DNA from: a virus
Virus record (IMG/VR): IMGVR_UViG_3300027763_002006
Span: 1-64,000 of that record
Reading direction: 5' to 3' (one strand)
DNA: 64,000 nucleotides
Part shown: piece after piece, positions 5,948 through 33,827 of the stretch
How the letters are laid out: every line of letters starts with the position of its first letter
Position numbering within the stretch: the stretch's first letter is position 1
Translations under genes and position numbers: made by a program
Notes under the pieces: model-generated
The model's database searches: none
What the model was told of the DNA's origin: nothing
What the model saw: only the letters and a program-made list of their open reading frames with translations

Positions 5948-5949
5948 AA

Positions 5950-6858
5950 TTAACTTTCGTAATTCTTAAATGCGAAAACCTTTTGTAGTCTTTCGTATGC
6001 TTCTGTATTTATTTCTTCGCTGACTTGGTCAGATTTTTTAATATTAACCGGCGTAAGTTTTGGACTTGGCTTTTTAGTTTCAGTTACACCTTGTTGGTTA
6101 TGCATGTCCATGATTTGTCTAACATAGAAATTATAATGGCCGCGACGGCCATTGTATTCTCTGTCTCCAAGCACAGTCTTTAATGCTTTGACAGCATCAT
6201 TTAATTCTGGACCTTGCATTATGCGTAATGCGTCAGTGACCAGTGAATCAACTCGCTGTGAAGCTTCTGTTACATCTTGATCTTTGCTTTTCATATAATC
6301 ACGAACAGTATCTAAATAGTCAACTGCTTTAGTAATCTTTGATTGAACCCATTCTGGCAAGTTCTCATCGCTGTCTAAAATACTGCGTAATTCTTCTGCG
6401 GCATTAGCGGCAGTGGCAAGATCTTGTCGAGCCATATCGCCTTCTTGATCATATTCGCCAGGATCGTTGGCAGTATCAGCAACACCTTCTGTCAAGTCAG
6501 CGACTGCAAAGCCAATATAACTATTGCCATTTTCGTCACCCGTTTGTACAACAAAAGCGCCACCCTCTTCTGATTCTATTTCGCCGATTCCCCAACCCAT
6601 ACGATCTAGGATTTGTTCTACTTGTTGTTGTGTGGCATCATTACCATTATACCACATACGAGCATATTTGTGTAATGTATCTTCTTCACCACCTGAACTA
6701 TCGTCAGGAGCAAACTCTTTAATTGTTTTAACTTCTTCTTGCAACTTAGCAATCATAGCACTACGTTGTTGACGTTGTTGTTCAGATAGAGTATTGACGT
6801 CTAACTTACTTAAACGATCTGCTAGTTCATATAGTTGGCGTGCTCTTTGTTTATCCAT
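5950..6858 (-). CDS. Modular hypothetical protein (putative internal head polyprotein)
   Basis: Modules separated by KEFAP, LTEGVAD, QDVTEA and QGVTET; contains NLPEWVQSKITKAVDYL module. Confidence 0.65.
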   Translation of the reverse strand: MDKQRARQLYELADRLSKLDVNTLSEQQRQQRSAMIAKLQEEVKTIKEFAPDDSSGGEEDTLHKYARMWYNGNDATQQQVEQILDRMGWGIGEIESEEGGAFVVQTGDENGNSYIGFAVADLTEGVADTANDPGEYDQEGDMARQDLATAANAAEELRSILDSDENLPEWVQSKITKAVDYLDTVRDYMKSKDQDVTEASQRVDSLVTDALRIMQGPELNDAVKALKTVLGDREYNGRRGHYNFYVRQIMDMHNQQGVTETKKPSPKLTPVNIKKSDQVSEEINTEAYERLQKVFAFKNYES

Positions 6859-7060
6859 TATTAGTTCCATTTTCTAAAACATTAGACTTATCTTTTTTAG
6901 TTTTTAACTCTTCGGCTTCCTTTTTAGGACGCTTGCGAGTCATTGCCATGTTGCGTTTCATTGGCACAGCAAACAAATTGCTGGCTGGAGCAGAAGCTAT
7001 GGCGCCACTGCTAATGCCGCCTACGCTGCCGTCTTCACTGATAAGTTCTTTTATTTTCAT
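6851..7060 (-). CDS. Small protein with MKIKELISE leader
   Basis: TAAATA directly precedes ATG 7060. Confidence 0.6.
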   Translation of the reverse strand: MKIKELISEDGSVGGISSGAIASAPASNLFAVPMKRNMAMTRKRPKKEAEELKTKKDKSNVLENGTNNG

Positions 7061-7096
7061 ATGTTTATTTATGCCAATTTGTGTCAATATAACGTA

Positions 7097-8452
7097 TTAT
7101 CTTTTGATGCTGGTCAACTCTTTTAACAAAGGACCTTTTTCAATATAATTACGGACATAAATACCGCCGCCTTTTTTAGTTTCACGTTTTGTTCTAATTC
7201 TAAATAATTGAGTGCCGCTGTTTTTATCAAATATTTCTATTTGTGGAGTAGCAGAGTTTTCGTTATAACTAGCATCTAAATCAATGTTCGTTAATTGTTT
7301 TTCTAAGTTAGCAAAACTCATTACTTCATAAGTTCCGCGCTCTAGACTAACTAAAATGACTGTGGGGTCGTTTAATGTAGCAAAGTAGTCAATGCCTTTT
7401 ACCAAGTCTTTTAAGAACAAGTATTCGGCATCATCGAAGCTGCCTGCTAACAAGTCTTGAAGGAATGTAGCGGCATCGCGATAGATAGATTCTATGGCTG
7501 CTATTAAACCTTTTTTCTCTAATACTTTATTAAATTCAGCTCTGCTTGATTCAATGTCAATGCCAAAAGAGTTCCATAGTTTCTTCTGAGCATCAAATTC
7601 TTCGCCAACATCACCTTGACCAACTTGTCCCATTTGATCACTGCCTGCTTTAAGACTAATGTTAAGTTGTTGATGTGTTTGTTTTCCAGTTTTTGGATCT
7701 GTGACAACAACTTCGATGTCAGATTTCTTAGTAGTGCTTCCGCTGATACCGTCTGTAATAACGTGAATAATATCCGGCTTGCCATTTAAGTAAAAATATT
7801 CACAGTATGCTTGAGCATCTGCACTATTAGCATAAGCCACTGCACTGTTAATTACATCACTTAACAATGCTCGTTTTGCTTCGTCCATTAAGTCTGCATA
7901 TGGACCAGGTTTTAATTTTAATGTATATTGAATACTATCATTAACAGCAGATTTACTAGCATCTTTAACTTTAACACCGTAATGATCTTCCTGTGTTTGA
8001 TTTAGCATGTCAATAACATTCCAAATGTCATCACCACCGATAATATCAATCTTACCACGAGTCCTTGCTATAAGTTTAGCAAATAAACTAGCACCTAGAA
8101 TACCCTCACTGACTTCACCTTTGTTAGACAAACCGGCGCCGCCAGCACCCTTGCCTCCCAGTTCTGCTGATTTAAAAAACTTACTTAAACCCAATGGGCC
8201 TTTGTCTGTGTCAACTTTAAAATTACTTGGCACAGTTCCTAAATTAAAAATATCTGCTATACGTTTGTATTCAGATGTATTAACTAATGCTGTGCTGCCA
8301 TCTACTAATTCGAATGGTTCTTTTTGTAGAACTTTGTTTAAGAAAACATTAAGACGTTTCCACTTTGTTGGCTCTGTTTCAGAGTCAAAGTATTTTGTCA
8401 GTTCGCCTGCACTAAGTGCCGCTTCTGTAAGTTTAAGATCTAATAATCGCAT
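7097..8452 (-). CDS. Putative PD-(D/E)XK-type nuclease-like protein
   Basis: NKGEVSEGI...KSDIEV...NISLKAG resembles a restriction-endonuclease core; MRLLDLKLTE leader; TATAAATA upstream. Confidence 0.5.
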   Translation of the reverse strand: MRLLDLKLTEAALSAGELTKYFDSETEPTKWKRLNVFLNKVLQKEPFELVDGSTALVNTSEYKRIADIFNLGTVPSNFKVDTDKGPLGLSKFFKSAELGGKGAGGAGLSNKGEVSEGILGASLFAKLIARTRGKIDIIGGDDIWNVIDMLNQTQEDHYGVKVKDASKSAVNDSIQYTLKLKPGPYADLMDEAKRALLSDVINSAVAYANSADAQAYCEYFYLNGKPDIIHVITDGISGSTTKKSDIEVVVTDPKTGKQTHQQLNISLKAGSDQMGQVGQGDVGEEFDAQKKLWNSFGIDIESSRAEFNKVLEKKGLIAAIESIYRDAATFLQDLLAGSFDDAEYLFLKDLVKGIDYFATLNDPTVILVSLERGTYEVMSFANLEKQLTNIDLDASYNENSATPQIEIFDKNSGTQLFRIRTKRETKKGGGIYVRNYIEKGPLLKELTSIKR

Positions 8453-8469
8453 AATAGTATATTTATATG

Positions 8470-9846
8470 TTATTCTTGTTCATCGGTATGCGCTAGACAG
8501 CCTTCCCAGAAACTGTTATTACTGTAAGGACATTGATTAGGGTCAGTTATATTTCTAGCATCTGCCCAACGATCGCCTGCGGCATGTCCGCTACAGTCTT
8601 TAGTACAGGGATAACCTTTATACACGCCAGCTTCCAATACATCTTTCCATATAACGTTTAAATCTTCTAACATTTCAGATTCGTTTTTAGCACGGCCGCT
8701 TTTCATGTTAGCACACCAGTGATACATTTTGGCACGTTCGCCACTGGCATCTTTTGCTTTTGATCTTAGGTCAGAGACACTTCCGTCACAGCTTGCACCA
8801 CTGCGTTTAACACGTCCAGGACGACTTTTGCCTTTGACCTTACCATCTGCAAAATTCTCTGCTACATCCTGCTGACCTTCCACAGTAAGCCTGTCTAATG
8901 CTATTGGATTTAATACAACATTCGGTTTCAAGCCTTTGGTGTTAGCATAGGCCACATACACTTGATCTGTGGGTTCTATAACAAAACTCACACAATGTTT
9001 ACCGGGCCAGTCTGGTTTGCCCACACTAAACCAAATGCCTATCACAGGAATAAATGGATGTTCATCTGTGCTCAACCGACCATATTCCCGTTCGCCTGTG
9101 GCGTCACGCAGAGGTTTTAGTCCTCCACTTTTCTTAATTGCTTCTAGCCTATTGGTACAATGATAAACCCTTTGCCCCACTATGTCTTGTCCAGGAAATA
9201 AGTTCGTACCGGGAACATTCTTAGGTGGTCTAAGTCCTTGGTAGTTGACAAAGTTTTCTTTTACTGGTGGTATTGGTTTGATTCTGCTCAACTCATATCT
9301 AACTATGCTACCAGTGTCTGCACGGAAAGGCCTGTAGCCCCAAGTGCGAGCGTAACGCTGTACCAGTCGGTCGTATAATTTGGCACGACTTTCACGGTTT
9401 TGGTCAGGCTCCACTTCTTTGCTGGCTGAAAATGTCAATCGTTTTGGATTGTGTTCTTTAATGTATTGCTGGATAGCGGCCAATACTGTGGCAAATACTC
9501 GTTGAGCATCACCGTCGCCAGTGACTTCTTGGCTGTTGTTTCTATGGAACTCTACTTGTATGACTTCTTCACCTTCTTCATCATACTCCATGTTGAACAT
9601 AATACTTAGAAAGGTGTTGTCATCTAATCGTGCTATTGCGTCTACATCACCATAATGCTCACTGTTTTCCCATCGAAGTATTTTATAGGGTTGGTCAAAT
9701 GCTTCGGTGACTGCTTGATGCAATGCACTTTTAGGTTTATCTAAACTGAGGCCGCCCTCCATGACAGCAAGTTCGTAGTCAGTGAATTTACTTTCTACTT
9801 TTACATCTTGGCTGACATAGCCTGTAACAAATTGATCAGCTCTCAT
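8470..9846 (-). CDS. Multi-module protein: GNAT-like + ADP-ribosyltransferase-like + two small Cys modules
   Basis: TGDGDAQRVFATV...SRAKLY; VYHCT...GGLKP...GIWFS; CTKDCSGH...SFWEGC. Confidence 0.55.
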   Translation of the reverse strand: MRADQFVTGYVSQDVKVESKFTDYELAVMEGGLSLDKPKSALHQAVTEAFDQPYKILRWENSEHYGDVDAIARLDDNTFLSIMFNMEYDEEGEEVIQVEFHRNNSQEVTGDGDAQRVFATVLAAIQQYIKEHNPKRLTFSASKEVEPDQNRESRAKLYDRLVQRYARTWGYRPFRADTGSIVRYELSRIKPIPPVKENFVNYQGLRPPKNVPGTNLFPGQDIVGQRVYHCTNRLEAIKKSGGLKPLRDATGEREYGRLSTDEHPFIPVIGIWFSVGKPDWPGKHCVSFVIEPTDQVYVAYANTKGLKPNVVLNPIALDRLTVEGQQDVAENFADGKVKGKSRPGRVKRSGASCDGSVSDLRSKAKDASGERAKMYHWCANMKSGRAKNESEMLEDLNVIWKDVLEAGVYKGYPCTKDCSGHAAGDRWADARNITDPNQCPYSNNSFWEGCLAHTDEQE

Positions 9847-9847
9847 A

Positions 9848-19790: not shown

Positions 19791-19796
19791 ACTAGA

Positions 19797-19825
19797 ATTA
19801 TACATTAACATCATAACAATGTCAA
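19797..19825 (-). promoter_or_regulatory. Consensus sigma70 promoter driving the intergenic RNA
   Basis: TTGACA-17 nt-TATAAT. Confidence 0.85.
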
Positions 19826-19840
19826 CAAATTTAAGTGGTG

Positions 19841-19876: not shown

Positions 19877-20752
19877 TTAAACGTTTAACCATGTACTACC
19901 ATTCCATACTTGTAATATGCTGTTGCTTAATACCATCATTCCTTGTGCAGGACTAGGTATTGCGGCATTTCTTACAGTATCATCGGCGTATACTGGAATA
20001 CGTGGAACACCACTTAAATCAGCATAAGCACCACTTGTGGCTACGGTTGCCAAAGTAGGACGGCCAGTTAGGCTAGTGTATTGTCCATTGAACAATGTTG
20101 GCTTGTGTGTCAAGTCATCATAGTCACCACTGAATAGTGTAGGCTTGCCAGTTAAGTCGTCATAGTCACCACTGAATAGTGTAGGCTTATTTGACAAACT
20201 ATCGTAATCGCTGTCAAATAACACAGGTTTGTTTGACAAGTCGTCATAGTCACCACTGAATAGCGTTGGCTTGCCGGTTAAGCTGTTATAAGCACCGTCA
20301 AACAATACTGGCTTGTTTAATAAGTCACTGTATGCGCCGCTGGTAGCAACCACAGATAAAGATGAACTATTTGCTTTTAAAGCTAATTGTGTAGTCATTG
20401 TTGCACTAAAATTAGCGTCATTACCCAATGCTGTTGCAAGTTCGTTTAATGTATCTAATGCACTTCCTGCACCTGCTTTTAATGCTGTGATAGCATTGTT
20501 AACATATGTTTCACTGGCAGCGTTGGCAATGTCGCTGACGTTTGGTGGATCGGAGAAAGGCAAGTCACGCAAATCATTGTAACTACCATTTTGATCATCA
20601 AAGTAATCTAAATCTACCCAAGCATCGACACCGTTGCCGATTTTAAGTTTACCAGTGTTCAATTCATAGCCCATTTCGCCTTGACTCAGTGTTGGATTTG
20701 TACTAGTCCAGTTTGCCCCTGTGTCTCTTCTAATTTGCATTTTATTAGCCAT
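19877..20752 (-). CDS. Tail fibre-like protein with Mtd_N/hyaluronidase-type N-terminus and 14-aa repeats
   Basis: [36 protein letters not shown]; [14 protein letters not shown] repeats. Confidence 0.8.
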
Positions 20753-20972
20753 TTGCGTTGCCCCCATCTAATTGTATATCACTTGTTGAGAATATTGATG
20801 ATGCTGAACCACCGTCTGTCTCTATAACAGCTCCTTGAAATCCTCTAGGTCCACGTGGACCTACTTGGCCTGAATGTCCAGGAATTCCCTGCGGTCCTCT
20901 TGAACCTTGAGAGCCTCTTGGTCCTGTAGGGCCTTGTAAGCCTCTGGGTCCTGCAATGTATTGTATAGTCAT
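20745..20972 (-). CDS. Short collagen-like (Gly-X-Y) protein
   Basis: [16 protein letters not shown]...; GGAG RBS; TAAATA upstream. Confidence 0.75.
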
Positions 20973-20995
20973 ACTTGTCTCCAAACTTTATATTA

Positions 20996-22386: not shown

Positions 22387-23126
22387 TTTTCTACAAATGC
22401 TCTTTCTACTACAAATGTTCCTGGCTCACGGAGACTTCCTTCTGTCATACCCCGAGCTTTGCACCAATCACTAACTTGATGATTAAATTCTAAATTGCCG
22501 CATAACATTATTTTGTCTATGTCAGTGTTAATCTTTAGCATGCCTGTGGCTAGTTGATAGCCGATTCTGGGTTCACTCTGCCCTGTAAGTATAGGATGAT
22601 ATTCTAACACAGAATCAACCAAGTCATGCAATTCGCCGTCCTGAGGGTGATCTTTAAATGCTGTTACTAAGTCTGCGTTATACGCTAAATCTGAGGAATG
22701 TCTAGTACTATGGACAATATGAATCTTCGTCCACGATTCTAGTGTTTCTAAATCTCTGATCAAACTCATGAAAGGAGCAAGCCCTGTGCCTGTGGCCAGC
22801 ATCCATAATTCTCCTCCCTGTGTTAATGCGCTGTTGACTAATGTACCAGTGCATTTGGGCATGACAACAACTTCACTGCCAACTTCTATGTGCTGTAGTT
22901 TGCTGGTTAATTCACCGTCTTGTATTTTAATACTAAGAAATTCCAGTTCCTCACTCCAAGGAGGACTAACAATACTATAAGCCCTGACAACTCTCTTGCC
23001 ATCGATGATTAAACCAATCATGGCAAATTCTCCGGCAACAAATCTAAATGCTGTACTGCGAGTGCATTTAAAACTAAATGTGCGATCACTCCAGTGATGC
23101 ACCCAAGTAACTTTTTCTGTAAACAT
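22383..23126 (-). CDS. fpr: Ferredoxin-NADP+ reductase
   Basis: RAYSIVS, GELTSKL, ATGTGLAPF, MLCGN, VERAF. Confidence 0.92.
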   Translation of the reverse strand: MFTEKVTWVHHWSDRTFSFKCTRSTAFRFVAGEFAMIGLIIDGKRVVRAYSIVSPPWSEELEFLSIKIQDGELTSKLQHIEVGSEVVVMPKCTGTLVNSALTQGGELWMLATGTGLAPFMSLIRDLETLESWTKIHIVHSTRHSSDLAYNADLVTAFKDHPQDGELHDLVDSVLEYHPILTGQSEPRIGYQLATGMLKINTDIDKIMLCGNLEFNHQVSDWCKARGMTEGSLREPGTFVVERAFVEK

Positions 23127-23140
23127 AATATCCAAAATTA

Positions 23141-23232
23141 ATGCTCACTTTAAATGAAGTCTGGCGTAACTTACATTTTAGGCAGCAGCCGCCTACACTC
23201 TTATAACGCAAAGGTCCTAAGGTAGAGTGTTC
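23141..23232 (-). promoter_or_regulatory. Candidate structured cis-regulatory RNA in the fpr 5' leader
   Basis: Three stems (ACACTCT/AGAGTGT, AGGC/GCCT, AAATG.AAGT/ACTTCATTT) plus possible TGCT/AGCA pseudoknot. Confidence 0.55.
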
Positions 23233-23259
23233 ATTGAAATCTTTACACAGACTATTCTG

Positions 23260-23898
23260 TTATTTTTTCCATATCCAAAATAGTCTATGAGGAGTTCTTT
23301 TTTCAGTGTTACTACGTTTTGCCGCTCGATCAGTCCAATCAAGATCTTTTTCACCTTGACGATTTGTTCTTGTAATCTGCACAGGTCCTTCATGTAATGT
23401 CATATTTAGTTCTTCAGTCCAAGCTGCAATTTTTTCTGCATTCCATCCATAATACATATCTTTGATGTCATTGTGATCTTTCATGTTTCCACGAAATATA
23501 GCATACCCACCTTGTTTAAGAACTCTAGTTACTTCTAGTAATTGTTTTTGTATAACAGATCTATCACCAAAATTAATACTTCCAAAACATAGAACAACAT
23601 CAGCAGAGTTATCATCAAACGGAATTACAGAAATGTCTGTCTTAATGTCGGCTGCGTCATTTACTAAATCAATTCCAATTAAATTTTTTATAAAATTTTT
23701 ATATTGATTATCGCCACAGCCCAGATCCAATACTAATAAAGGATTGAGGCTGTTTACAAATTCTATAGTTTCCGTGCCACATTTTTCATACTTGTGTATT
23801 TTTCCTTTTGAAAATTCTTTGCCCTGTAGTTCTTTTCTTTTTCTTTTTTCTTCATCTACATGAAAGAAATTAGAAATATCATTGTTTAATGTTGACAT
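23260..23898 (-). CDS. Class I SAM-dependent methyltransferase
   Basis: VLDLGCG, GIDL, FGSINFG. Confidence 0.85.
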   Translation of the reverse strand: MSTLNNDISNFFHVDEEKRKRKELQGKEFSKGKIHKYEKCGTETIEFVNSLNPLLVLDLGCGDNQYKNFIKNLIGIDLVNDAADIKTDISVIPFDDNSADVVLCFGSINFGDRSVIQKQLLEVTRVLKQGGYAIFRGNMKDHNDIKDMYYGWNAEKIAAWTEELNMTLHEGPVQITRTNRQGEKDLDWTDRAAKRSNTEKRTPHRLFWIWKK

Positions 23899-24723
23899 TT
23901 AAACCTCAATAATCTTCGGACAAGTTTTTAAAAACTCGAGAGTTTCTTCGGTAACTCTGCCAGTAACGTTAAGCGTTGGTCTATTACCGTGACTGAAATT
24001 TGCTGTTCCGTGTGGAATATCTCGCCATGGCCAAGTGATACAATCGCCCTTTTTCCAAGTAAGAAACTCGTCGCCCTGTTTCCATACTTGACCTTCTTGT
24101 TGATCTTCTAAAAAAATAATAACACGCATTAATTTTCTTTGATCGTAGTCACATTCAGCAAATTTGTTGTAGTCATCTCTTTGTTGTTTTAAAATTCCGC
24201 CAAAGTTGTCCAAGTGCCAGTAAAACATTTGTCCTGGCTTTTGTACGTCAAATTTAATATTAGGACCTGCTCCGCCATATTCTGGCAGTGCTGCTCGGCC
24301 AGTGTGTGCAGGATGAGTAAATTTAAAAACATCTGCCATTTTTTGCAAGGTTGGTGTTAATTTAGCATGTCGAGTTCTGTTTAATATAGTATATGATCCT
24401 TCGCCGTCAACATTGTAACCCCATCGTTTAAAATCATTGTACTCCATGGTGTTATTATTATCTCTGCGAGATTCAGAACGATAGTCAAAAGTAGCAGGAA
24501 ATGTCTGCTCAGTCATTGTTCGAATCTCTTCGATCCAGTCACCGCGAAATTGACATATAGGAACAACCAAAGGTGGCTCATACTCCACAGGTACACTCTT
24601 GTCAAAATTGTATAAACTTGTTGCTTTACAAAATTCATAGAGACCGTTAAATCCATTATAAGGAACCGGATCGGCGGTTTTCAAACTATTCCATAACTCG
24701 TAGGAATTTTTATCAAAGTTCAT
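23899..24723 (-). CDS. 2OG-Fe(II) dioxygenase-like protein
   Basis: WHLD (HxD)...PHGTAN...R; GGAG RBS before ATG 24723. Confidence 0.75.
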   Translation of the reverse strand: MNFDKNSYELWNSLKTADPVPYNGFNGLYEFCKATSLYNFDKSVPVEYEPPLVVPICQFRGDWIEEIRTMTEQTFPATFDYRSESRRDNNNTMEYNDFKRWGYNVDGEGSYTILNRTRHAKLTPTLQKMADVFKFTHPAHTGRAALPEYGGAGPNIKFDVQKPGQMFYWHLDNFGGILKQQRDDYNKFAECDYDQRKLMRVIIFLEDQQEGQVWKQGDEFLTWKKGDCITWPWRDIPHGTANFSHGNRPTLNVTGRVTEETLEFLKTCPKIIEV

Positions 24724-24751
24724 TAATTTTTCTCCGTATTCAGTATATTGA

Positions 24752-25612
24752 TCAGTCAAGTCCGAGTTCTTTGCGTATTTTAGTGGCACTGATATCAGTT
24801 ATGCTTTTGTCAAAAGTCTCTTCACCGGCAGTGTAACCCACACCACGACCCCAGCCAATGTGTACGATATTAGGAACAACTTGTATTTCATATTGCCCTT
24901 GATACAGTGGATCTAAATCACGACGGATAAAGCCTTTGACTTTTTCTACTTCAAAGGGATTGCTGCCCTGCCAACCTTGTACATCACGCACTTGAATAAT
25001 TACTTGTCCGGTCTTAGCCAACAAACGTTCAAACAGCGCACGATGTCCATCATGCCATGGTTGCCAACGGCCCAGCATTTGTACAGTTTCTTTTTTCCAA
25101 TCAAACTCAGGACGTCTACGATTAGATAAAATGTGCTCTCCGATAAACTCTGCCCACTTTTCAGCGTTTTGTTCAGTTATACGAAAGTCATATACTTCGG
25201 GCGGCGTAAATGCTTTGTTGGTATCTTCGTAACGGCCTTTGTCAATTGTATCGACCCAGATAGTCCAGTCTGCTTTAAAGTTATTACGCATTTCAACCAA
25301 TGGTGCAACAAAATCACAGATAACAAACTCGCCTGTGCATTCTATGGCAAATTGGAACATACGTAAACTTTGACGTATGCGACCTTCTTTACTAAAGTCC
25401 CAGTCGTTGTATTTTTTACGAATATCATCAGCATTAAACCAATCTACTCCCACTCGCATAAAATTAGGATCCGGTATCCCTTCGTAGTTCATTACTCGAC
25501 CGGGATTAACTTTTAATAAATCACCGTTGGTTTCGAGGTATTGTTTAAGTGCTTGAGCCAAATAAGTTTTACCTGCGCCAGGCAAACCCATGATTAATAT
25601 ACGTTGTGTCAT
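24752..25612 (-). CDS. Adenylylsulfate kinase-like domain fused to HxGH nucleotidyltransferase
   Basis: GLPGAGKT, NADDIR, DFSKEGR, DFVAP; then GRWQPWHDGH and ISATKIR. Confidence 0.8.
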   Translation of the reverse strand: MTQRILIMGLPGAGKTYLAQALKQYLETNGDLLKVNPGRVMNYEGIPDPNFMRVGVDWFNADDIRKKYNDWDFSKEGRIRQSLRMFQFAIECTGEFVICDFVAPLVEMRNNFKADWTIWVDTIDKGRYEDTNKAFTPPEVYDFRITEQNAEKWAEFIGEHILSNRRRPEFDWKKETVQMLGRWQPWHDGHRALFERLLAKTGQVIIQVRDVQGWQGSNPFEVEKVKGFIRRDLDPLYQGQYEIQVVPNIVHIGWGRGVGYTAGEETFDKSITDISATKIRKELGLD

Positions 25613-26277
25613 AATTTATATTCTTGTTGTTTTAATATATTTAAAAATTCTTCAGTTTTAACAGTTTTTACACCTGTTAGTTGAAATGTTACTCTAGGAC
25701 TATGTCCTGAATTTGCTGTGCCATGCGGAACATTTGCCCAGTCGAATGTAGTAACTTCACCGGCACGCCATTTGTTATGATGATAGTTTCCGTATTCCCA
25801 GAACTGCCCTGGTTGCCAATCAGTTAATTGAATCATAACTCGCAATATTTTGCTGGGATCTTCTGGGCACCATTTTTGCAATTTGTCTAAATGTCGATTC
25901 CAAACTTCGCCGGGCATTTGTACGTGAATACGTTCCATGACATCATCTAATGCAAACAATTCTGTAATTTGACGTAACACAGGAGGTATAGCCCAATTTA
26001 AGTGTGTAATAGTTACGTCTGCATCCATGCCTATTCGAGTTAAATCATATTCTTCGGCAATTTGATCTTCACGTGGAGCTTCTACACCCTCGCCTTTATA
26101 TCCTCGAGTGCGCCATGTTGCAGGTTTTGCTGTGGCAATAATCTCTTGGAGTTCTAGATCCCAACAAGGCTTGATCTGTCCTAAATTTATTACTGTATCA
26201 AAGCGTTCGTCATGTGCGAATTGATCGTCAAAGTGATAACTACTTTTTTCTTTGGTTGTGTCCCAGCTACTTTTCAT
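25609..26277 (-). CDS. 2OG-Fe(II) dioxygenase-like protein
   Basis: QMPG...RHLD...PHGTAN...PRVTFQLTG; paralogue of 23899. Confidence 0.75.
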   Translation of the reverse strand: MKSSWDTTKEKSSYHFDDQFAHDERFDTVINLGQIKPCWDLELQEIIATAKPATWRTRGYKGEGVEAPREDQIAEEYDLTRIGMDADVTITHLNWAIPPVLRQITELFALDDVMERIHVQMPGEVWNRHLDKLQKWCPEDPSKILRVMIQLTDWQPGQFWEYGNYHHNKWRAGEVTTFDWANVPHGTANSGHSPRVTFQLTGVKTVKTEEFLNILKQQEYKL

Positions 26278-26900
26278 TTTATAAAACTGACCTTTCTGAC
26301 AAATTTATCCAGTTCTTGAATTTCAATGTCGTTAATGTATTTACTATTTGCATCAGATTTAAGTATCTCTGCAATCCTTGAATCATTGCCATTTACGGGG
26401 AACGCTAATAATTTAGCCATGTTAGTAACATAATGTTCTTTGTACAAGTACAATAATTCTTGACTTAGATATATAGGATCTAAAGTGTTAAGATAATTTA
26501 ATTGATCTAGAAAATCATTTAATGACACTCTATTTCTAATTCTCTGTTGTTGACTTTTAAGTATATTTTGATCACGTCCGATGATTGCTATTTTTACTTC
26601 TATGTTTAGTTCTTGTAAACCGGCAATAAATTGTTGGTAATTGGGAATTGTAGGAATATCTATATTGTGATATGGACAGCTAATACTTGTCACGTAATAA
26701 TCACTTTGACTCCAATCAAAAGTTTTCAACAATTCAGGATTATTCCAGTGTTCAGCAAATGGTTCATCTTTGTGCGCTATCCAATAAGTGTCTAATAATT
26801 TATTCCAACCATAGACGTCTTTGTGTAGTGCAAATATTTTGCTGAACAAGTGATTGCCTGAACCCTGCGGTCCTGTTATAATTAACATAGTCTTTGACAT
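26274..26900 (-). CDS. Sulfotransferase-like P-loop protein
   Basis: IITGPQGSGNHL; IIGRD. Confidence 0.55.
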   Translation of the reverse strand: MSKTMLIITGPQGSGNHLFSKIFALHKDVYGWNKLLDTYWIAHKDEPFAEHWNNPELLKTFDWSQSDYYVTSISCPYHNIDIPTIPNYQQFIAGLQELNIEVKIAIIGRDQNILKSQQQRIRNRVSLNDFLDQLNYLNTLDPIYLSQELLYLYKEHYVTNMAKLLAFPVNGNDSRIAEILKSDANSKYINDIEIQELDKFVRKVSFIK

Positions 26901-26905
26901 TTTAA

Positions 26906-27130
26906 TTAATCCTTTCCAGTTACAATAACAGCAACTTGATCAACCCATACCATTCTGCCACGACAACTGATATTCCATTTAGTTTCACCATGCTCTTGTG
27001 TACACTCAGTGTATGTTTCTCCGATGATGCGAACATCTGAAGCCAAATGTTCTACACCATTTTCAAATATGCGCCAGACTAATACCCCATCAGTGTGCTT
27101 GGTATTGAATCTAACATGATACTTGTTCAT
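26906..27130 (-). CDS. Hypothetical protein
   Basis: 74 aa ORF, ATGA-coupled. Confidence 0.65.
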   Translation of the reverse strand: MNKYHVRFNTKHTDGVLVWRIFENGVEHLASDVRIIGETYTECTQEHGETKWNISCRGRMVWVDQVAVIVTGKD

Positions 27131-27753
27131 ATTACCATAACACGCACATCTGACACTGCATAGTCTTGTGCGTATTCTTTAGGTGGCGCAGTGATGTTTA
27201 ATGCTTGTGCTAACTGTAAATTATCTACAACGACTCGGCCACGATATTTCCACCATGCAGATAGAATATCTGCATTTTGTCTTTTAATAATTTGAGCCAT
27301 GTTCTTTAAATCTTTGTAATATTCAAAGTAGTCGGGATAAGTGATATCAAAGTGACCACATTTAACCCACCAGCCCAAGCAACTATCATCACTGCGATGT
27401 ACAATTACAATGGGAGTTTCAGGAAACAATTTTCGCAGATGTTCAATGTGATTGCAGAACACATGACTTTTAATAATTCGCGTACCCTTGGATTCTTTAA
27501 ATTGAAATGGTTGTTCAAATATAGATTCTAATTGTTCGCGATTTAATGTTGTTAAATCTTCTGGCAGTGAACTTACCATGCCAGGATCAAAATATGCACC
27601 CAAGTGCATGAGTTCTGTTTTACCGCTGGCATCATGATAATAAGTCCACTCATCGCGATAATCACTGCGATCGATGTCTGCACTGTAGTAAATGTTTTTA
27701 ACTACGGAGCTCCATTTACTTCCTGGAGCCCCGGCTACGAAAATATATTTCAA
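27127..27753 (-). CDS. Sulfotransferase-like protein
   Basis: FVAGAPGSKWS, HLGAYFDPGM, IIKSH, VHR; paralogue of 29788. Confidence 0.55.
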   Translation of the reverse strand: MKYIFVAGAPGSKWSSVVKNIYYSADIDRSDYRDEWTYYHDASGKTELMHLGAYFDPGMVSSLPEDLTTLNREQLESIFEQPFQFKESKGTRIIKSHVFCNHIEHLRKLFPETPIVIVHRSDDSCLGWWVKCGHFDITYPDYFEYYKDLKNMAQIIKRQNADILSAWWKYRGRVVVDNLQLAQALNITAPPKEYAQDYAVSDVRVMVI

Positions 27754-27755
27754 AG

Positions 27756-28733
27756 TTATTCCTTGCTTAAATCAATTTTACTTAGTACAGGAATAAATGC
27801 TGAACGTAGTTCATCCATGTGCTTTTTCAATCCTGCAGGAGTCAATTCATCTTCAGCATAAAATACCACTTGTGCTTCACGCCATTCTGCATATTCTTTA
27901 CTACGAACAGCGGCTGCAAAAGTCTTTTGATACCATGCAGTAATTTCTTTCTCCGTGTTGGGTGGCAACTGTATTGACCATGCCGCATATACGTTAATGC
28001 CAGGCGCTACATCACGTAGTAATGGAACGCTGGGAAATTGTGCCATACGCTGTGTGCCTGTGAATCCAATGGCTTTTACCTTGCCTGCGTCTACCAGTGG
28101 TTTGGCCACTGCAATGGGCATGATACCAAACTCTGTGCCTGCTTGTCCAGGTTGAAATGATGCCACGCTGGTCACTGTTGGCAGTGGGCCATTGAATTTG
28201 ATTGGCTTGACTAGATCACGATTACCACGGCCTTTTTCCATTAAGAATTCATAGGCAGTACGATGTGCGCCACCGCCTGTGCCCACATTGATAGGCTTGG
28301 TAGTTGTGGAGATCAGCTTGACAAAATCCTGCGGAGTGTTAACTGCGCTACTAGGATGTGCTACCAATACTAGTGGACTTTTGCCCATGGTCAGAACATC
28401 TACAAAGCTGTCGTAGTTGTATTTTTTAATGTCTTTTTGCCAGATATCATTGGTTACATAACTGCTCATGTGGCTTGGTAGATTGATTGTGTAGCCGTCA
28501 GCGGCAGCTTCTAGTACCTTGTTGTTGGCAATGACACTGTCTGCGCCAGGAATGTTTTGTACAACATAAACAAACTTTGGGTTGGTCTTTTGTACAATTT
28601 CTGCCAGCTTGCGGAAAGCCATTTCGTTGCCAGCGCCTGGAGTATTACCGACAATAACGGTAACTGGTTTAGTTGGTTCCCAGGCAAATGCCAGTGCTGG
28701 AACAAGAGCTAATATCGCTAATATTTTTTTCAT
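27756..28733 (-). CDS. tctC: Bug/TctC tripartite tricarboxylate transporter substrate-binding protein
   Basis: Signal peptide; WEPTKPVTVIVG..PG, NIPGA, DGYT, GKVKAIG, FPSVP. Confidence 0.85.
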   Translation of the reverse strand: MKKILAILALVPALAFAWEPTKPVTVIVGNTPGAGNEMAFRKLAEIVQKTNPKFVYVVQNIPGADSVIANNKVLEAAADGYTINLPSHMSSYVTNDIWQKDIKKYNYDSFVDVLTMGKSPLVLVAHPSSAVNTPQDFVKLISTTTKPINVGTGGGAHRTAYEFLMEKGRGNRDLVKPIKFNGPLPTVTSVASFQPGQAGTEFGIMPIAVAKPLVDAGKVKAIGFTGTQRMAQFPSVPLLRDVAPGINVYAAWSIQLPPNTEKEITAWYQKTFAAAVRSKEYAEWREAQVVFYAEDELTPAGLKKHMDELRSAFIPVLSKIDLSKE

Positions 28734-28825
28734 AAAATATGTCCTTTAATTATTAAAATAGTGAATCTCGACACTATATACTGTATTACAACTTTTATTT
28801 ATCAAGGATAATCAAAAAATTTACT

Positions 28826-29560
28826 ATGAATACAAAAATTTTTAACCTTTTGCAAAAAAATCTGCAACTAGCATTTAATTTACCCAAGTATCAGAAAATT
28901 TCTGATAGTATCGGTGAAAATACCATTGTTCAGGACTTGCCCTGGACGCCAGCTCGCTACCGAAAATTCAAAGACACAGTGGACATTGAATTAGGTCTAC
29001 CCTGTGATTATATCGGTACATTAAAAGCAATTACCGCAGATTTAAATGAACGTTATACACATCGTTTCTTTGCTGAGATTTGGAAACCACGTACAGGTGA
29101 CTATGAGCACACTGGCTGGGAATTAGCAGAAGAAATCAACAAACTAAATCCAGAAAAAGTGTTGGATGTGGGTTGTGGATATCATCCGTTCAAGGGACGT
29201 ATTCAGAATTTGATTGGTATCGATCCCTACAATAATTGTGCTGACTATGAAGTAGATATCTTAGACTATAAAGTAAAACCAGAGAGTCATGATGTCATCA
29301 TGGCCCTGGGTAGTATTAACTTTAACAGCAAAGATGAAATTGAATCACGATTTAGTCACTGTGTGAGTTTGTTAAAACAGGGCGGAAAATTTTATCTACG
29401 TGCCAATCCCGGTATTACTCACAAAACAGGTCCATACGTTGACATATTTGATTGGAGTTTTGAAATCGCCAGTGAATTTGCTGAAAAGTACAATTTAAAT
29501 CTAGACGCTTTCAAGAAAGACGCCAACGACAGACTGTACTTTGTTTATACAAAAAAATAA
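28826..29560 (+). CDS. Class I SAM-dependent methyltransferase
   Basis: VLDVGCG, GIDP, LGSINF; paralogue of 23260. Confidence 0.85.
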   Translation: MNTKIFNLLQKNLQLAFNLPKYQKISDSIGENTIVQDLPWTPARYRKFKDTVDIELGLPCDYIGTLKAITADLNERYTHRFFAEIWKPRTGDYEHTGWELAEEINKLNPEKVLDVGCGYHPFKGRIQNLIGIDPYNNCADYEVDILDYKVKPESHDVIMALGSINFNSKDEIESRFSHCVSLLKQGGKFYLRANPGITHKTGPYVDIFDWSFEIASEFAEKYNLNLDAFKKDANDRLYFVYTKK

Positions 29561-29791
29561 TTATTTGTAATAAAGATAGAATAGGCCAGGAATAATAATA
29601 AAAAATTGCGGGATAAAATTAAGCATAAGTGCTTTTTCCCGCCATTTATAGCCTACATATATCCAGCCTGTGGCGCCTATCATTTGCACTAGGCTGTTCC
29701 AGGGTGTGATTCCCAAGACGTGCAATACCATTGCACAGAGAATAACAATGGCGCTGGCATACTTGATATACCAGACATGATCCCTTTTCAT
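29561..29791 (-). CDS. Small membrane protein
   Basis: Hydrophobic; PWN...GW.YVG.KWRE.AL; paralogue of 2519. Confidence 0.65.
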   Translation of the reverse strand: MKRDHVWYIKYASAIVILCAMVLHVLGITPWNSLVQMIGATGWIYVGYKWREKALMLNFIPQFFIIIPGLFYLYYK

Positions 29792-30411
29792 TTTAATATT
29801 GCTATTGTGGAATCAAATACTTTAGTACCGACGTCTCCCACACTACGGCCTAAATTTTCTTTTACCCATGCAGTAGAAAATGGTTCAAGGGTCAATGAAT
29901 GTTCTTGGACAAAATCTAAAATAGCTTTGTTCTGTGCGTCAATTTCTTTTCGCATGGTTTCGTCGTCTTTATAAGCATCATAACAGGGATATTTAATTTC
30001 GAAACCACCGGTGGTTTTCCACCAGTCAAAGCTTTCGGTGCTGTCTCTAAAAACTACTATAATCCAATCATCGGGAAATGCTTTTTTAATATCATTGAGT
30101 TGATATGCCCAGTGATGACTCTTGACTAATTTAACACCTTTACTGTCTTTTTCCCAGGCTCGATCTATATAGTCGGCATCTAATTTTGCATCAAATTCCA
30201 TGCCAGGACCAAAATATGCACCTTTGTGTGATCCCTTGTGGTTCTTATTCTCGAGAAAACCATTGGTCACAGCAAAACTAACATGTTCATATGATCTTTC
30301 AGGTGTGCGATCCGTTTTATTAAAAGAGTCTAGTCGTTCAATAATTTGTGATACACCGCTCCAGCGACTTCCTGGTACGCCAGTAAAAAATATTCGTTTA
30401 GGTAATTTCAT
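29788..30411 (-). CDS. Sulfotransferase-like protein
   Basis: FFTGVPGSRWS, HKGAYFGPGM, VKSH, WW..GGF.I.YP.Y. Confidence 0.55.
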   Translation of the reverse strand: MKLPKRIFFTGVPGSRWSGVSQIIERLDSFNKTDRTPERSYEHVSFAVTNGFLENKNHKGSHKGAYFGPGMEFDAKLDADYIDRAWEKDSKGVKLVKSHHWAYQLNDIKKAFPDDWIIVVFRDSTESFDWWKTTGGFEIKYPCYDAYKDDETMRKEIDAQNKAILDFVQEHSLTLEPFSTAWVKENLGRSVGDVGTKVFDSTIAILK

Positions 30412-30453
30412 GATATTATTTAATAACTTTATTCTTTATTCTATGACAAACAA

Positions 30454-31416
30454 TTAAACCACAAATTCTTTAAAATCAAAACCATGGGCAGACATTAATT
30501 CTAAGTTTTTTTCGTGCCATATTCTAAAGTAGTAGTAAAATTGATTTGAATTTATTTCAAATATATCTTCCAAATAGCCCTTGTTAAAACATTTTGAAAA
30601 ATCAATTTGTTTATAATTATAAAATTCATTGCAAACAAAATTACATTGTAATACGTGACTTTCGTAGTCGCCATATAATTTATTTTCATATTTGTTGAAT
30701 AAATCTTTAACACTTGAATTAATTAATTCACGGGGAGAATTAAATTCTTTGGAAATATACCGGTTAAAAATAGACATAACGGTTAGTAAAGGTATTCTGC
30801 TGACATTTAATTTATCGATCTCTTCTAAATAAGCATCGATATTAAATATTTCTATACTATTGCGGTGTTTCTCTGTTTCTTGATGATGTTTAATCATATC
30901 AACAGCCATTGTATTTTTTAATGAACACAGTATATTTGCATACTTAAACCATACTTGTTTATCTTGAAACAAATAATAAGTTTTGTTATTAAAATATTGA
31001 TTTATAATTGTGTGCGATCTAAATAATGGATTTTTACAGTTCTTTAAATATTCATCAACTTCAGTGAGTATGTCATTTAATTGTTGCTTATTATAGCGTT
31101 GATTAAAAATTGTAGCCAGCGAACTTTCTATATCAATTTTATTATATTCTTTGGGATTATAACTGGGTGTATCGGAAGGACACGAACTAATTATTATATT
31201 ATAAAATTCGGGGTATTTTAGTACAGTTCTATTAATTTCCTGGTTTATAATTAGATCGTATTTTTGATTTTTAAATTTATTGGAAAAAATATCAAGTTGA
31301 TGAGTTAAAAATTCTCCGCCACTTCCGCCTTTAAACATAAAGAAACTCTGTGGCACTGACAGAGTTTCTCTTATTTTAGCTTCTAAATTTGTAATGCCAC
31401 GATGGATTATTGCCAT
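30454..31416 (-). CDS. Hypothetical AT-rich protein (GGSGGEF motif)
   Basis: 320 aa ORF, markedly low GC. Confidence 0.55.
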   Translation of the reverse strand: MAIIHRGITNLEAKIRETLSVPQSFFMFKGGSGGEFLTHQLDIFSNKFKNQKYDLIINQEINRTVLKYPEFYNIIISSCPSDTPSYNPKEYNKIDIESSLATIFNQRYNKQQLNDILTEVDEYLKNCKNPLFRSHTIINQYFNNKTYYLFQDKQVWFKYANILCSLKNTMAVDMIKHHQETEKHRNSIEIFNIDAYLEEIDKLNVSRIPLLTVMSIFNRYISKEFNSPRELINSSVKDLFNKYENKLYGDYESHVLQCNFVCNEFYNYKQIDFSKCFNKGYLEDIFEINSNQFYYYFRIWHEKNLELMSAHGFDFKEFVV

Positions 31417-31439
31417 ATAGTATTATCAAAGCAAGCCCT

Positions 31440-31517
31440 TCATACAGGACTGTAAGGATTTCTTTTAGTGTCCGTTCCATCATCTTCGGGCCACACTGGA
31501 TAGTCATTGGGGTTCAT
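31440..31517 (-). CDS. 25-aa peptide MNPNDYPVWPEDDGTDTKRNPYSPV
   Basis: Translated by hand; TAATG-coupled to the thermonuclease stop; fills the gap. Confidence 0.5.
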   Translation of the reverse strand: MNPNDYPVWPEDDGTDTKRNPYSPV

Positions 31518-31966
31518 TAGTTGCACCAGCTTTGTTTGGCCTCACCGTAGTATTCACGGGCAAAGCCGTTCTTGATCAACAAACCACGTAGGCTAACATT
31601 ATTATCTAAAATAATATCGCCCAGCATACGGCCACCGTATTTGTCCCAGCTTAATACTGCTACACGGGCTGTTTTACTTTCAGTGATAACTTTCTTAGTA
31701 AATGCTGTGGCAGCTTCGCCTCGTTGTGCTTCACTAGGGCATAACGCTCTGTGACCTTTTTCTGGAGTGTCAACGCCGAATACACGAATGCTCATTTTCT
31801 TGGCCAATGGATCCGGTACCCAAGGTGTGGCAACTTCCACAGTGTCGCCATCTACAACACGGTTTATTTTCCAGTCATATATGACCATTGGCTTTTCTTT
31901 AGGTGCAGTTTGAGCACTTGCTACTGTGCATATAGACAGTAATAGTATTGATATAATTCTTTTCAT
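31517..31966 (-). CDS. Thermonuclease (SNase-like) with signal peptide
   Basis: VVDGDTV, IRVFGVDTPE, DKYGGRML. Confidence 0.9.
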   Translation of the reverse strand: MKRIISILLLSICTVASAQTAPKEKPMVIYDWKINRVVDGDTVEVATPWVPDPLAKKMSIRVFGVDTPEKGHRALCPSEAQRGEAATAFTKKVITESKTARVAVLSWDKYGGRMLGDIILDNNVSLRGLLIKNGFAREYYGEAKQSWCN

Positions 31967-31967
31967 T

Positions 31968-32603
31968 TTATTTCCATATAACCATTTTGAATCGTTCTTT
32001 CGGTACTCCGAAATAATTGCACTTCCAATCGCTTTGTGCAAAGAAATCTAAATGGTGCCATTTCTCTTTGTATTTAATCAATTTATTCGCGGCATCTTCC
32101 CAATTGATATTTTGTAATATAGGTTCTATTTCTTGTTTGATTGCAGATATTTCATCGTAGTTAAAACTATCCCATTCCCAGTGTAATATTTCAAAAGCAT
32201 TACCCTGCCTATCTACATAGTCCATAGAGAAGTCTAATCCCCATTTTGGTCTCATTGATATAACTTTATATATTAGTGGAAGTTTTTCTGCCCAGTGTTG
32301 TAATTGTTCCAATGCGGCATCAGCATAGGCTTTGCGTTCAAATAAACTGCTGTGATTTAGAACTGCGCCTTCTAGTTTAGTAAACTGTGTGTGCCAGTCT
32401 TTTTTAATTGCAAATCTATGTTCACGTTGCTTTTTAGGTTTAACATAATTGCCATAGGCAAAGAGCTGTTCTAATTTAGTTAAATCGTAGCCATTTTGAT
32501 CAAACAATTCAATATCTTCGTATGTGGGTTCATAAAGTAATTTGGCCACTGGATTTCTCCAATAGCCATCTTGTTCAAACACATTATCTGACAAAGTTAC
32601 CAC
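31968..32603 (-). CDS. Hypothetical protein
   Basis: FDQNGYDLT, PKWGLDFSMDY; 211 aa. Confidence 0.7.
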   Translation of the reverse strand: MVTLSDNVFEQDGYWRNPVAKLLYEPTYEDIELFDQNGYDLTKLEQLFAYGNYVKPKKQREHRFAIKKDWHTQFTKLEGAVLNHSSLFERKAYADAALEQLQHWAEKLPLIYKVISMRPKWGLDFSMDYVDRQGNAFEILHWEWDSFNYDEISAIKQEIEPILQNINWEDAANKLIKYKEKWHHLDFFAQSDWKCNYFGVPKERFKMVIWK

Positions 32604-32995
32604 TTACGGCAACTCCAATAACGTGCTTTAGTTCTTGGTCCGGGATTGGCACAGTTATGTCTTGCTCTGAAACTACGTCTACGTGCAGGATTACTTTTCT
32701 TAATACGCATATTAGGATCGCCAAAGTTTACTTTAACAGTTTTACCTGTTTTGGGATTTTTAACATAAACTTTAAACTTCTTAACATCGCCTTGCATTGG
32801 CTTGCCTAGCTTAACTGGGCGACCATGATACTCTGCTTCTAACAATGACATACCTGAGTCATTGTCTGTTTCACAGATATAATCGCCATTGTCTATGGCA
32901 GTGATCACAGTTTCGACAACTTCGTCACCTATTTCTACTTCTAAGATGTCTCCGACTTCTGGAACATCATTGTCTAAGAATTCATCTAAACGCAT
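32597..32995 (-). CDS. Basic viral protein with MRLDEFLD leader
   Basis: KVNFGDPNM...RRRSFRARHNC...ARYWSC domain after an LLE-AE linker. Confidence 0.7.
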   Translation of the reverse strand: MRLDEFLDNDVPEVGDILEVEIGDEVVETVITAIDNGDYICETDNDSGMSLLEAEYHGRPVKLGKPMQGDVKKFKVYVKNPKTGKTVKVNFGDPNMRIKKSNPARRRSFRARHNCANPGPRTKARYWSCRKW

Positions 32996-32996
32996 T

Positions 32997-33827
32997 TTAT
33001 TGTTCCCTCATTGTAAGCATAACAAGTTTATTTTCGTTGCCTGGCTGCTTTTTAAATTCCAAGGCCGCTGCATTGGCAGCAGATTTTCCTGTGTAAGATT
33101 TTGGAATAACTCGCCCGTCTACTCTCACATACCAAGTGCCCTGCGTATTTTGACGTTCACGCTCTTGTTCCATTCTACGATCAATTTCATGATGCTCGTC
33201 GTCTTCGCGTTCTCTGCGCCCCCAGTTTTCAGCACCGCCGTAGTCGCCTTGATATCCTGGCATATTGCTGTCCCATGAATCTCGTCCACTGCCTTCCGCC
33301 ACACCTTCTGTGGGACGAGCCGACTGTTGCGCTTGTTCTTGATTGTAAGTATCCAACCAATATTTGTCATGCTTTTCTAAATAACTTTCAGCGGCTTTCT
33401 TGTCCATTGTCACTGGCCATTCTTCTGCCCTCCAACGAAATTTTGTTTCACTTTTATAAGCTGTTTGTGCGTGTAGTTTTTCAAATTCTTGAACGTCAGA
33501 CTGGTCGCCTACATATTTGTAAATTAACTTTTTAATATAACCTTCTGCTTGACTGGGATTTTGTTGAATTAACTCTTTAAGTTTATCTAAACTATATAAA
33601 CCTAATGCGCCTTGGCCTGCATTAATAGAAGTAACAGCAGCCATTAATGGACCCAGTGCGGCTGTGCCACTGGTCAATGCCAATGCACCACCTCCAGCGG
33701 CAATACCTAATGCCGCTAGCACAGCTGGATTTTCAACACTCCATCGAATAATGCTGGCCAATACACCAGTTGGATTCAATTGGAATTCGTCTAATGTTTG
33801 TTGTTCTGTAAGTTCGCTAAATCTCAT
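32997..33827 (-). CDS. Modular hypothetical protein with MRFSELTE leader and EGVAEG linker
   Basis: AAGGA RBS and TAAATA upstream. Confidence 0.65.
   Translation of the reverse strand: MRFSELTEQQTLDEFQLNPTGVLASIIRWSVENPAVLAALGIAAGGGALALTSGTAALGPLMAAVTSINAGQGALGLYSLDKLKELIQQNPSQAEGYIKKLIYKYVGDQSDVQEFEKLHAQTAYKSETKFRWRAEEWPVTMDKKAAESYLEKHDKYWLDTYNQEQAQQSARPTEGVAEGSGRDSWDSNMPGYQGDYGGAENWGRREREDDEHHEIDRRMEQERERQNTQGTWYVRVDGRVIPKSYTGKSAANAAALEFKKQPGNENKLVMLTMREQ

Follow-up and report, generated by a model that had tools for sequence, protein, structure and literature searches.

Internal proteins in T-even phages vary greatly, with a leader alone in common (PMC3012670, PMC12373910). In phage T4, the capsid-targeting sequence MKTYQEFIAE is taken off by one cut (PMC8442874), and the protease gp21 cleaves after L/I-x-E (PMC9026906). 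Two further systems invite comparison: the polyvalent proteins (Iyer et al. 2017) and the PeSL cassettes of T4-type phages (Arbiol et al. 2010). Here, we describe a short coding joint, the linker, that connects unrelated protein modules in a T4-related phage. The linker is a clear natural instance of one short sequence that is constrained both as protein and as DNA. The window, that is, the whole stretch of DNA analysed, comprises 64,000 nucleotides (nt; positions 1 to 64,000) of IMG/VR record IMGVR_UViG_3300027763_002006, the whole contig of which is 92,215 bp.

The linker is seen in the window as an exact 19-mer, GCCTTCCGCCACACCTTCT, at positions 13590–13608 and 33291–33309; there is no third copy. 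Both copies are in frame on the coding (minus) strand of long open reading frames (ORFs), where they read EGVAEG. The first, (K)EGVAEG, spans residues 203–208 of a 525-amino-acid (aa) protein and connects a nucleotidyltransferase module to module 2, while the second, (T)EGVAEG, spans residues 174–179 of a 276-aa protein. A comparison of the DNA flanking the two copies found no similarity, and the duplication occurred in 0 of 100 dinucleotide-preserving shuffles. These results uphold the original prediction that an identical, in-frame repeat occurs in unrelated genes. A chance repeat, or plain paralogy of the two genes, would fit with the window having only two exact copies; it is refuted by the shuffles, by the dissimilar flanks, and by hundreds of in-frame copies in other contigs, and we give it next to no credence.

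Less exact copies of the linker are also present. The pattern [EQ][GD]V[AT]E occurs five times in the 92,215-bp contig, all within four genes of one class, which belong to the gene array described below. Diverged linkers, all on the minus strand, are LTEGVAD (6475–6495), QDVTEA (6262–6279) and QQGVTET (6076–6096) in the ORF at 5950–6870, and QQDVAENF (8851–8874) in the ORF at 8470–9846. The first three delimit widely distributed modules (residues 126–198 and 197–270), and all of them sit on similarity breakpoints, in agreement with their proposed position at domain boundaries. At the orthologous sites of one related locus (L002), the window's degenerate linkers are replaced by canonical QGVAE (QQGVAEAKRPSP, EQGVAENFADGR), and we therefore regard the window's versions as diverged copies. 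The motif EFAP..GG, proposed to start modules in two genes, does so at 6688–6720 and 13554–13586; relatives have it again in a longer joint, GVAEG(S)LNEFAPG.GG, ahead of differing modules.

The source of the window is an uncultured, freshwater, T4-related jumbo phage with a full genome of roughly 350 kb. The contig is 26% complete (CheckV) and encodes a T4-type family-B DNA polymerase (PolB; 3–2522) that is truncated at the contig end and adjoins the array genes, together with a clamp loader and a ClpA-like ATPase. The polymerase has its closest matches, at 42–48% identity, among T4-related jumbo phages, for instance Phosso, Atu_ph07, Vibrio phage 2.275.O, and RaK2/GAP32-like phages. IMG/VR contigs of 300–374 kb are among the relatives with the same linker, and pieces of the locus are present in public runs from freshwater or lake metagenomes. 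A megablast of 5950–14213 against the phage collection gave no match, and tblastn of the 525-aa protein matched its N-terminal domain alone, in Melnitz and S-H9-1. Orthologous IMG/VR loci were found via the 525-aa protein, using peptide patterns free of the linker; L-numbers denote such loci and other stretches of related genomes. G000 denotes the contig under study, and G002 and G006–G010 denote related IMG/VR genomes.

Across the orthologous loci, the linker consensus is (K/E)(E/Q)QGVAE(G/A), with 4–8 GVAE sites per 11–22 kb, and the DNA consensus is the 18-mer CAAGGTGTGGCGGAAGGC. Two points concern its codons. Firstly, Val is encoded by GTG in about 23 of 28 independent linkers and Ala by GCG in about 21 of 28, although GTG makes up 13.7% of the Val codons and GCG 5.7% of the Ala codons in the contig. 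Given the peptide GVAEG and the codon usage of the genome, the probability of the observed linker coding is 9e-4, and two non-linker GVAE peptides elsewhere in the contig are encoded by other codons. Secondly, at least 120 IMG/VR stretches contain the exact 18-mer. The QGVAEG frame is used by 153 of 154 copies, which lie in ORFs of median length 563 aa and have wholly diverse flanks. The motif is present in genomes of 39% and 47% guanine-plus-cytosine (GC) content. Near-matches, an ascertainment-biased set, keep the core AAGGTGTGGCGGAAG at all three codon positions. Across more than 100 phage contigs, the DNA of the canonical linker is fixed, silent positions included; the proposed conservation of synonymous sites is thus observed, and it runs contrary to genome codon usage. 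A text search of the literature for GVAEG returned unrelated papers only and turned up no account of the motif in phages.

Such conservation at all three codon positions raises the question of whether the 18-mer is primarily another kind of nucleic-acid signal (a homing or site-specific endonuclease target, a Chi-like hotspot, or a Shine-Dalgarno-like AAGG...AAGG ribosome-pausing element), with the module boundaries being secondary. The two AAGG tetramers of the core point the same way, as do homing endonuclease genes in or near such loci (HNH at 14222–14632 in the window; GIY-YIG-like in L281 and L289). However, a pure DNA site has no need of the single frame and orientation within ORFs that nearly all copies show; just two of the five codons are rare, so there is no general rare-codon pause; and the HNH gene is missing from most linker-rich relatives. 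We therefore hold a primary signal of this kind to be very improbable.

Module gain, loss and replacement breakpoints lie at the joints. Orthologues close to the 525-aa protein share its N-terminal HxGH nucleotidyltransferase domain at 73–90% identity, and their sequences differ after ...KKVKE(Q)GVAEG. This domain has 676 homologues in a collection of 5.8 billion proteins. The alignments of the best 120 of these were inspected: 112 align from the N-terminus, and in about 100 of the 112 the alignment ends at residues 184–220. Among 68 close orthologues (at least 72% identity), the following 80 residues fall into 41 unrelated classes.

The same picture emerges from 174 linker-bearing ORFs, which carry 1–7 linkers each and have a median internal module length of 77 aa. 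The starts of internal BLAST high-scoring segment pairs cluster at −6 to −5, and their ends at 0 to +2, relative to the Glu of GVAE; 196 ends fall in the five-residue bin at the linker Glu, versus about 10–30 in other bins. Among 25 recurrent module families, 15 have two or more different neighbours on the left and 18 have two or more on the right (neighbour counts are from smaller clusters only, single-linkage clustering having chained 192 modules into one cluster).

Contigs from other metagenomes place the breaks within the window itself. Seven contigs of three other freshwater runs (X2, X3, X5) match the module downstream of the linker as far as position 13606; beyond this point, which is inside the linker, they go on with three different, unlike sequences. 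More contig breaks in the same gene occur at 13161, 13025/13026 and 12884/12888, all after Glu. Together, these breaks indicate that the 525-aa protein consists of five modules, with each junction following Glu (VAE↓G, LDE↓H, EDE↓Q and TDE↓A, where the arrow marks the boundary). On the minus strand, the modules are M1, a HxGH cytidylyltransferase-like domain (13593–14213); M2 (13161–13592); M3, a widespread ~46-aa HIVKV..QVQYFKHM module (13023–13160); M4 (12882–13022); and M5 (12639–12881). In the 276-aa protein, residues 1–179 match L164 (85%), while residues 175–274 match a different protein in L004/L005. The ORF at 8470–9846 matches the C-terminus of a 791-aa protein of L002 solely from QQDVAE onward. 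Diverged joints retain hydrophobic-x-Glu despite non-synonymous change (GMAE, SVAE, DVTE, GVTE, VKE, LDE).

The original prediction saw in the linker a recombination homology for swapping cassettes. Its first half, that the breakpoints of orthologues map to the linker, is observed; its second half, that homologous recombination caused them, we put forward as an interpretation. A stronger version can be imagined, in which the 18-nt linker serves as a dual-coded signal dedicated to recombination, akin to an intragenic integron: a phage-encoded or hijacked function would swap domain cassettes in frame between genes and co-infecting phages, and the same six residues would direct the head protease to release the products. 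This is a tentative idea, and one that we consider on the whole unlikely.

The linker is interchangeable with a second element, found at gene starts: a leader of 8–10 residues with the pattern M(K/R)xx(E/D)(F/I/L)(I/V)xE. N-termini of the form M[KR]xx[EDQ][LFIV] occur in ten ORFs of the contig, all of them within 4266–15765 and 32597–33827, and in none of the other ~125 ORFs. Strict leader N-termini number two in G000, seven in G008 and four in G007, versus 0.03–0.06 expected (at least a 60-fold excess). Modules that follow ...GVAE↓ align, from their first residue, with free-standing ORFs directly behind the leader, which has a modal length of nine (examples in relatives are MRATEFITE, MRANEFVTE, MRAKEFVSE, MRSSEFVFE, MNLNDLFTE and MKLSEIIIE). 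One module, AFDQPY...SIMFN, has three different elements ahead of it: HQAVTE↓ (window), MRATEFITE↓ (L140) and TQGVAE↓ (L080). Leader and linker hold the same position relative to the first residue of the module.

Several observations connect both elements to the T4 head. The window leaders MRISEILSE, MKINQVLVE, MRLLDLKLTE, MRFSELTE and MRLLELKE resemble the capsid-targeting type, its hydrophobic-x-Glu end included, and leaders and joints alike fit V/I/L/M-x-E↓, near the gp21 rule. Peptidase_S77 is encoded in the linker-bearing genomes G006, G008 and G009, within a block of portal, gp67-like, protease, scaffold and major capsid protein genes; in G008, it lies at 9277–9915 of L185. In three loci, gp67-like core proteins contain E(E/S)GVAE; in T4, the corresponding protein is a substrate of gp21. 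Two loci, L281 and L289, have a linker-bearing multi-module gene as the second gene downstream of the capsid gene, behind a GIY-YIG-like ORF that directly follows the capsid gene (L281 1446–2168; L289 7337–8059).

A putative late promoter is a further common trait of these genes and the structural genes. The motif ATAAATA, similar to the T4 late promoter TATAAATA, probably serves this phage group as its late promoter: in G008, 37 of 59 copies lie within 45 nt (4–45 nt) upstream of ORF starts, including those of large structural and leader genes. In the contig, eight of 17 copies lie in this position. Three are in the array (8460, 12650 and 16528), and another is at 18729. The copy at 16528–16534 (minus strand) lies 22 nt upstream of the array's first gene (15762–16505), behind a terminator-like hairpin. 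The sequence TATAAATA itself was rejected as the late promoter, having just two copies in the window, below chance expectation; the shorter, position-enriched ATAAATA was hence used instead. A sigma-70 promoter scan gave no excess over shuffles.

The role of the linker as a protease site, one part of the original prediction, is strengthened by its hydrophobic-x-Glu end, its interchange with a leader like the T4 capsid-targeting sequence, and the presence of Peptidase_S77 in related near-complete genomes. From the sequences, we think it somewhat probable that the array's products are polyproteins packaged into the head as cargo, which a gp21-type prohead protease cuts after Glu, and that the 18-mer is the site of crossover. 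Under this model, cargo proteins and polyproteins would be built from unrelated modules of about 45–200 residues, each preceded by one of two interchangeable elements: (i) the leader at the gene start, or (ii) an internal (K/E)(E/Q)GVAE↓G joint or a weaker hydrophobic-x-Glu joint. The leader would act like the T4 capsid-targeting sequence, loading the chain onto the scaffold core, and the prohead protease would then cleave after the Glu of the leader and of every linker. Several modules (a cytidylyltransferase-like enzyme, an ADP-ribosyltransferase (ART)-fold domain, an amidoligase, and small basic domains) would thereby be delivered free under one address tag, to be ejected into the host along with the DNA. 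At the DNA level, the GC-rich 18-mer would be the microhomology through which genes, and co-infecting phages, cross over in frame; such crossover would shuffle the modules and also keep the linker copies identical.

Hypothetically, the linker could instead be a flexible interdomain joint that is never cleaved. The products would then be intact multidomain (polyvalent) enzymes, and the 18-mer would matter only as a recombination or junction signal, with the peptide a tolerated by-product. The DNA is indeed fixed beyond what constraint on the peptide requires, and breakpoints fall at the 18-mer to the nucleotide. The identity of the P3 residue also fits: in all of 80 related capsid loci, the putative capsid maturation site, which aligns with the T4 gp23 maturation cut, reads L-x-E↓N, whereas P3 of the canonical linker is Val, rather than the Leu of these sites or the Leu/Ile of the T4 rule. 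An uncleaved joint does not account as readily for diverged copies keeping hydrophobic-x-Glu through non-synonymous change, for the exchange of the linker with a leader that likewise ends in Glu right ahead of the module, or for GVAE in the gp67-like core proteins. We regard it as unlikely.

True polyproteins could also be processed in the cytoplasm, by another phage or host protease, in which case the leader would be a translation-initiation or other signal, and the products would act in the producing cell. The array adjoins replication genes (PolB), and enzymes are among its products. None of its genes (4266–15765) has a Shine-Dalgarno sequence, and the stop codon of one gene is coupled to the start codon of the next (TAAnnATG, overlapping ATGA), while neighbouring non-array genes have GGAG-type sites; an A/U-rich leader could thus partly serve translation initiation. 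A homing-type HNH endonuclease gene with no obvious place as head cargo has a leader-like start, MKINEL. Furthermore, G007 (343 kb, 47% GC, rated 99% complete) has linkers and leader genes, but tblastn found no T4-type capsid protein, portal or protease in it. Set against cytoplasmic processing are the closeness of the leader to the experimentally defined T4 capsid-targeting sequence (PMC8442874), the late-promoter-like ATAAATA common to structural genes, the linker-bearing gene inside a head-gene cluster, and the absence of any other protease family among those identified in the array (Pfam, PHROGs). We consider processing in the producing cell to be quite unlikely.

Several of the above points weigh against packaged, gp21-cleaved cargo: the Val at P3, the leader-like start of the HNH gene, the possible part of the leader in translation initiation, and the lack of head genes in G007. 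Others can be added. The prohead protease and capsid gene were not found in G000, of which only about 26% is available; as either contig may be incomplete, the missing head genes in G000 and G007 are no evidence of absence. The QGVAEG-coding pattern was not found in five cultured relatives (Phosso, Atu_ph07, Vibrio phage 2.275.O, PA5oct and GAP32). The comparison of codon identity between orthologues is biased in motif-ascertained loci, and the unbiased set (n = 6–12 per residue) is too small to decide. Finally, 18 bp is short for homologous recombination, and the linker could merely mark the sole viable junctions to survive selection. A gp21-type protease with a scaffold core was also not found in G010.

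The array consists of about ten co-oriented genes in two blocks (4266–15765 and 32597–33827), all on the minus strand. At one end, an 82-aa gene (4266–4514) starts with the strict nine-residue leader MRISEILSE; L002 has the body of this gene joined in frame to the orthologue of the upstream gene, behind ...RFVSE↓G of that orthologue. The upstream gene itself encodes a 477-aa leader-class protein (4514–5947; MKLFELYQQ), whose similarity to orthologues stops at RFVSE↓G (4886–4903). Next are the 306-aa protein (5950–6870), with three diverged linkers and one of the EFAP..GG module starts, and a 451-aa leader-class protein (7097–8452; MRLLDLKLTE; phrog_3560), with the T4-late-promoter-like TATAAATA ahead of it at 8460–8467. 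The 458-aa protein (8470–9846) has a decayed leader, MRADQFVTG, and a HQAVTE↓AFDQPY junction (9700–9720); its order is a DUF6934-like module, the ART-fold module (about 8872–9240), QQDVAE↓NF, and basic C-terminal modules. It is followed by a 927-aa leader-class protein (9848–12631; MKYLELKE) in which C-terminal modules that vary accompany an Amidoligase_2 domain, with ATAAATA at 12650–12656, and by the five-module 525-aa protein (12636–14213; leader MKINQVLVE). The M3 module of the latter (HIVKV.GGW...KRE.QVQYFKHM) recurs in over 40 viral contigs, either on its own or as part of a fusion, in which its place varies.

The HNH/endonuclease VII-like, homing-type gene (14222–14632, minus strand) lies between the 525-aa gene and that of a 382-aa leader-class protein (14617–15765; MRLLELKE; DUF6267). 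It is likewise placed in L001 (94% identity) and absent from L002–L007. It begins with the same ATGAAAATAAA as the downstream gene, as though inserted at the start-codon junction. In the second block, a 132-aa leader-class protein (32597–32995; MRLDEFLDN) has a C-terminal basic module of ~80 aa that is free or fused in many phage contigs, and the two-module 276-aa protein (32997–33827) has the leader MRFSELTE. The N-terminal module of the latter (33600–33780) contains a long, Gly/Ala-rich, hydrophobic, glycine-zipper-like stretch, and may be membrane-active. No peptidase family was found in the array proteins of the window by Pfam or PHROGs, and Pfam returned nothing, even at E = 5, for the ART-like module and the 276-aa, 477-aa and 82-aa proteins.

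The module at residues ~210–325 of the 458-aa protein is assigned an ART beta-sandwich fold on the basis of a structural model. The AlphaFold2 (AF2) model has a predicted local distance difference test (pLDDT) score of 87.4, with both junction ends disordered. All 50 of the 50 best structural matches (VIA) are ART-fold proteins, including Tpt1 (Z 7.3, root-mean-square deviation 3.4 over 89 residues), and the top Foldseek matches are to the same families, if weak; as Z is below 8, the assignment is at the level of fold only. Among 1.84 billion clusters, the module (taken as residues ~205–325) has 24 representatives. In seven of these, it is 93–96% identical within seven architectures, preceded by MKIQELIE↓ or x-x-E↓NF joints. 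The His and Thr of YHCT (9154–9168) are invariant among the 24 homologues, and there is no Pfam match. A relative of the 458-aa protein, P0122, carries a HExxH zincin-like segment upstream of the ART-fold module, the sole peptidase-like element seen in these chains.

Some further features were observed away from the array. Collagen-like G-x-y repeats in two large ORFs, and 42-nt tandem units common to several tail-fibre-like genes, occur in the window regions 39679–43194, 48856–50943 and 20058–20323. Small, overlapping, paralogous genes, every one ending ...F(M)LRWS, lie in a row in L225 (1–2203; G002) and in the window (59754–60330); one such paralogue has a fragment similar to the N-arm of the major capsid protein (E 7.7e-5). 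G007 (L207–L224) contains an ORF of 4790 aa.

If packaged, protease-released cargo is the correct reading, a single address tag serves giant T4-type phages in the delivery of many pre-made effectors, which are re-dealt in frame at a fixed joint, and the fast diversification of injected arsenals would be explained. A simple rule, to cut after the leader and every hydrophobic-x-Glu joint, would then turn thousands of long, hypothetical freshwater-virome ORFs into defined, testable mature modules. If the linker is a dedicated, dual-coded recombination signal, it would form part of a purpose-built machine for evolving injected arsenals. The linker is also a ready-made in-frame connector that could be tried in T4 packaging vectors.

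Short conserved peptides at which variable modules recombine are also found in polymorphic toxins (VENN of CdiA, DPxGL of Rhs), and the Rhs motif is a proteolytic release site as well. Those are secreted bacterial proteins with immunity genes and a single variable tip; here, the joints run serially along proteins of a phage, immunity genes were not noted, and a protease of another kind is proposed. Other relations are found in phages. The T4 internal proteins IPI, IPII, IPIII and Alt (PMC9026906, PMC8442874, PMC3012670, PMC12373910) share with the array proteins a short, N-terminal, MKTYQEFIAE-like leader ending in hydrophobic-x-Glu. Both sets consist of otherwise unrelated, fast-changing proteins with the leader alone in common, and a gp21-type protease is encoded in related genomes; Alt, a packaged ADP-ribosyltransferase, has a parallel in the ART-fold module. 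They differ in that here one leader heads a multi-module chain with internal copies of the proposed cut-site motif, the joint is fixed as DNA, and P3 is Val.

Polyvalent proteins (PMC5512222) likewise carry many unrelated effector-type domains per polypeptide, are thought to be delivered with the DNA and processed, and show extensive mosaicism. Proteins of the window have at least two such unrelated domains per polypeptide (cytidylyltransferase-like plus four modules; DUF6934-like plus ART-fold plus basic; amidoligase plus variable tails). For polyvalent proteins, however, release is proposed to occur via an embedded zincin-like peptidase, and the word "linker" is never used (PMC5512222); the window proteins are without a peptidase domain and have a six-residue, 18-nt punctuation instead. 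PeSL cassettes resemble the present case in that repeated, conserved DNA flanks cassettes in T4-type phages, with gain, loss and replacement breakpoints in the repeat and homologous recombination as the proposed cause (PMC2839356). They differ in that the PeSL is a ~100-bp intergenic promoter and stem-loop moving whole ORFans (PMC2839356), whereas the joint described here is 18–19 nt, coding and in frame, and moves domains. The kinship of the finding is thus with T4 internal proteins and their capsid-targeting sequence, with polyvalent proteins, and with repeat-mediated cassette shuffling.

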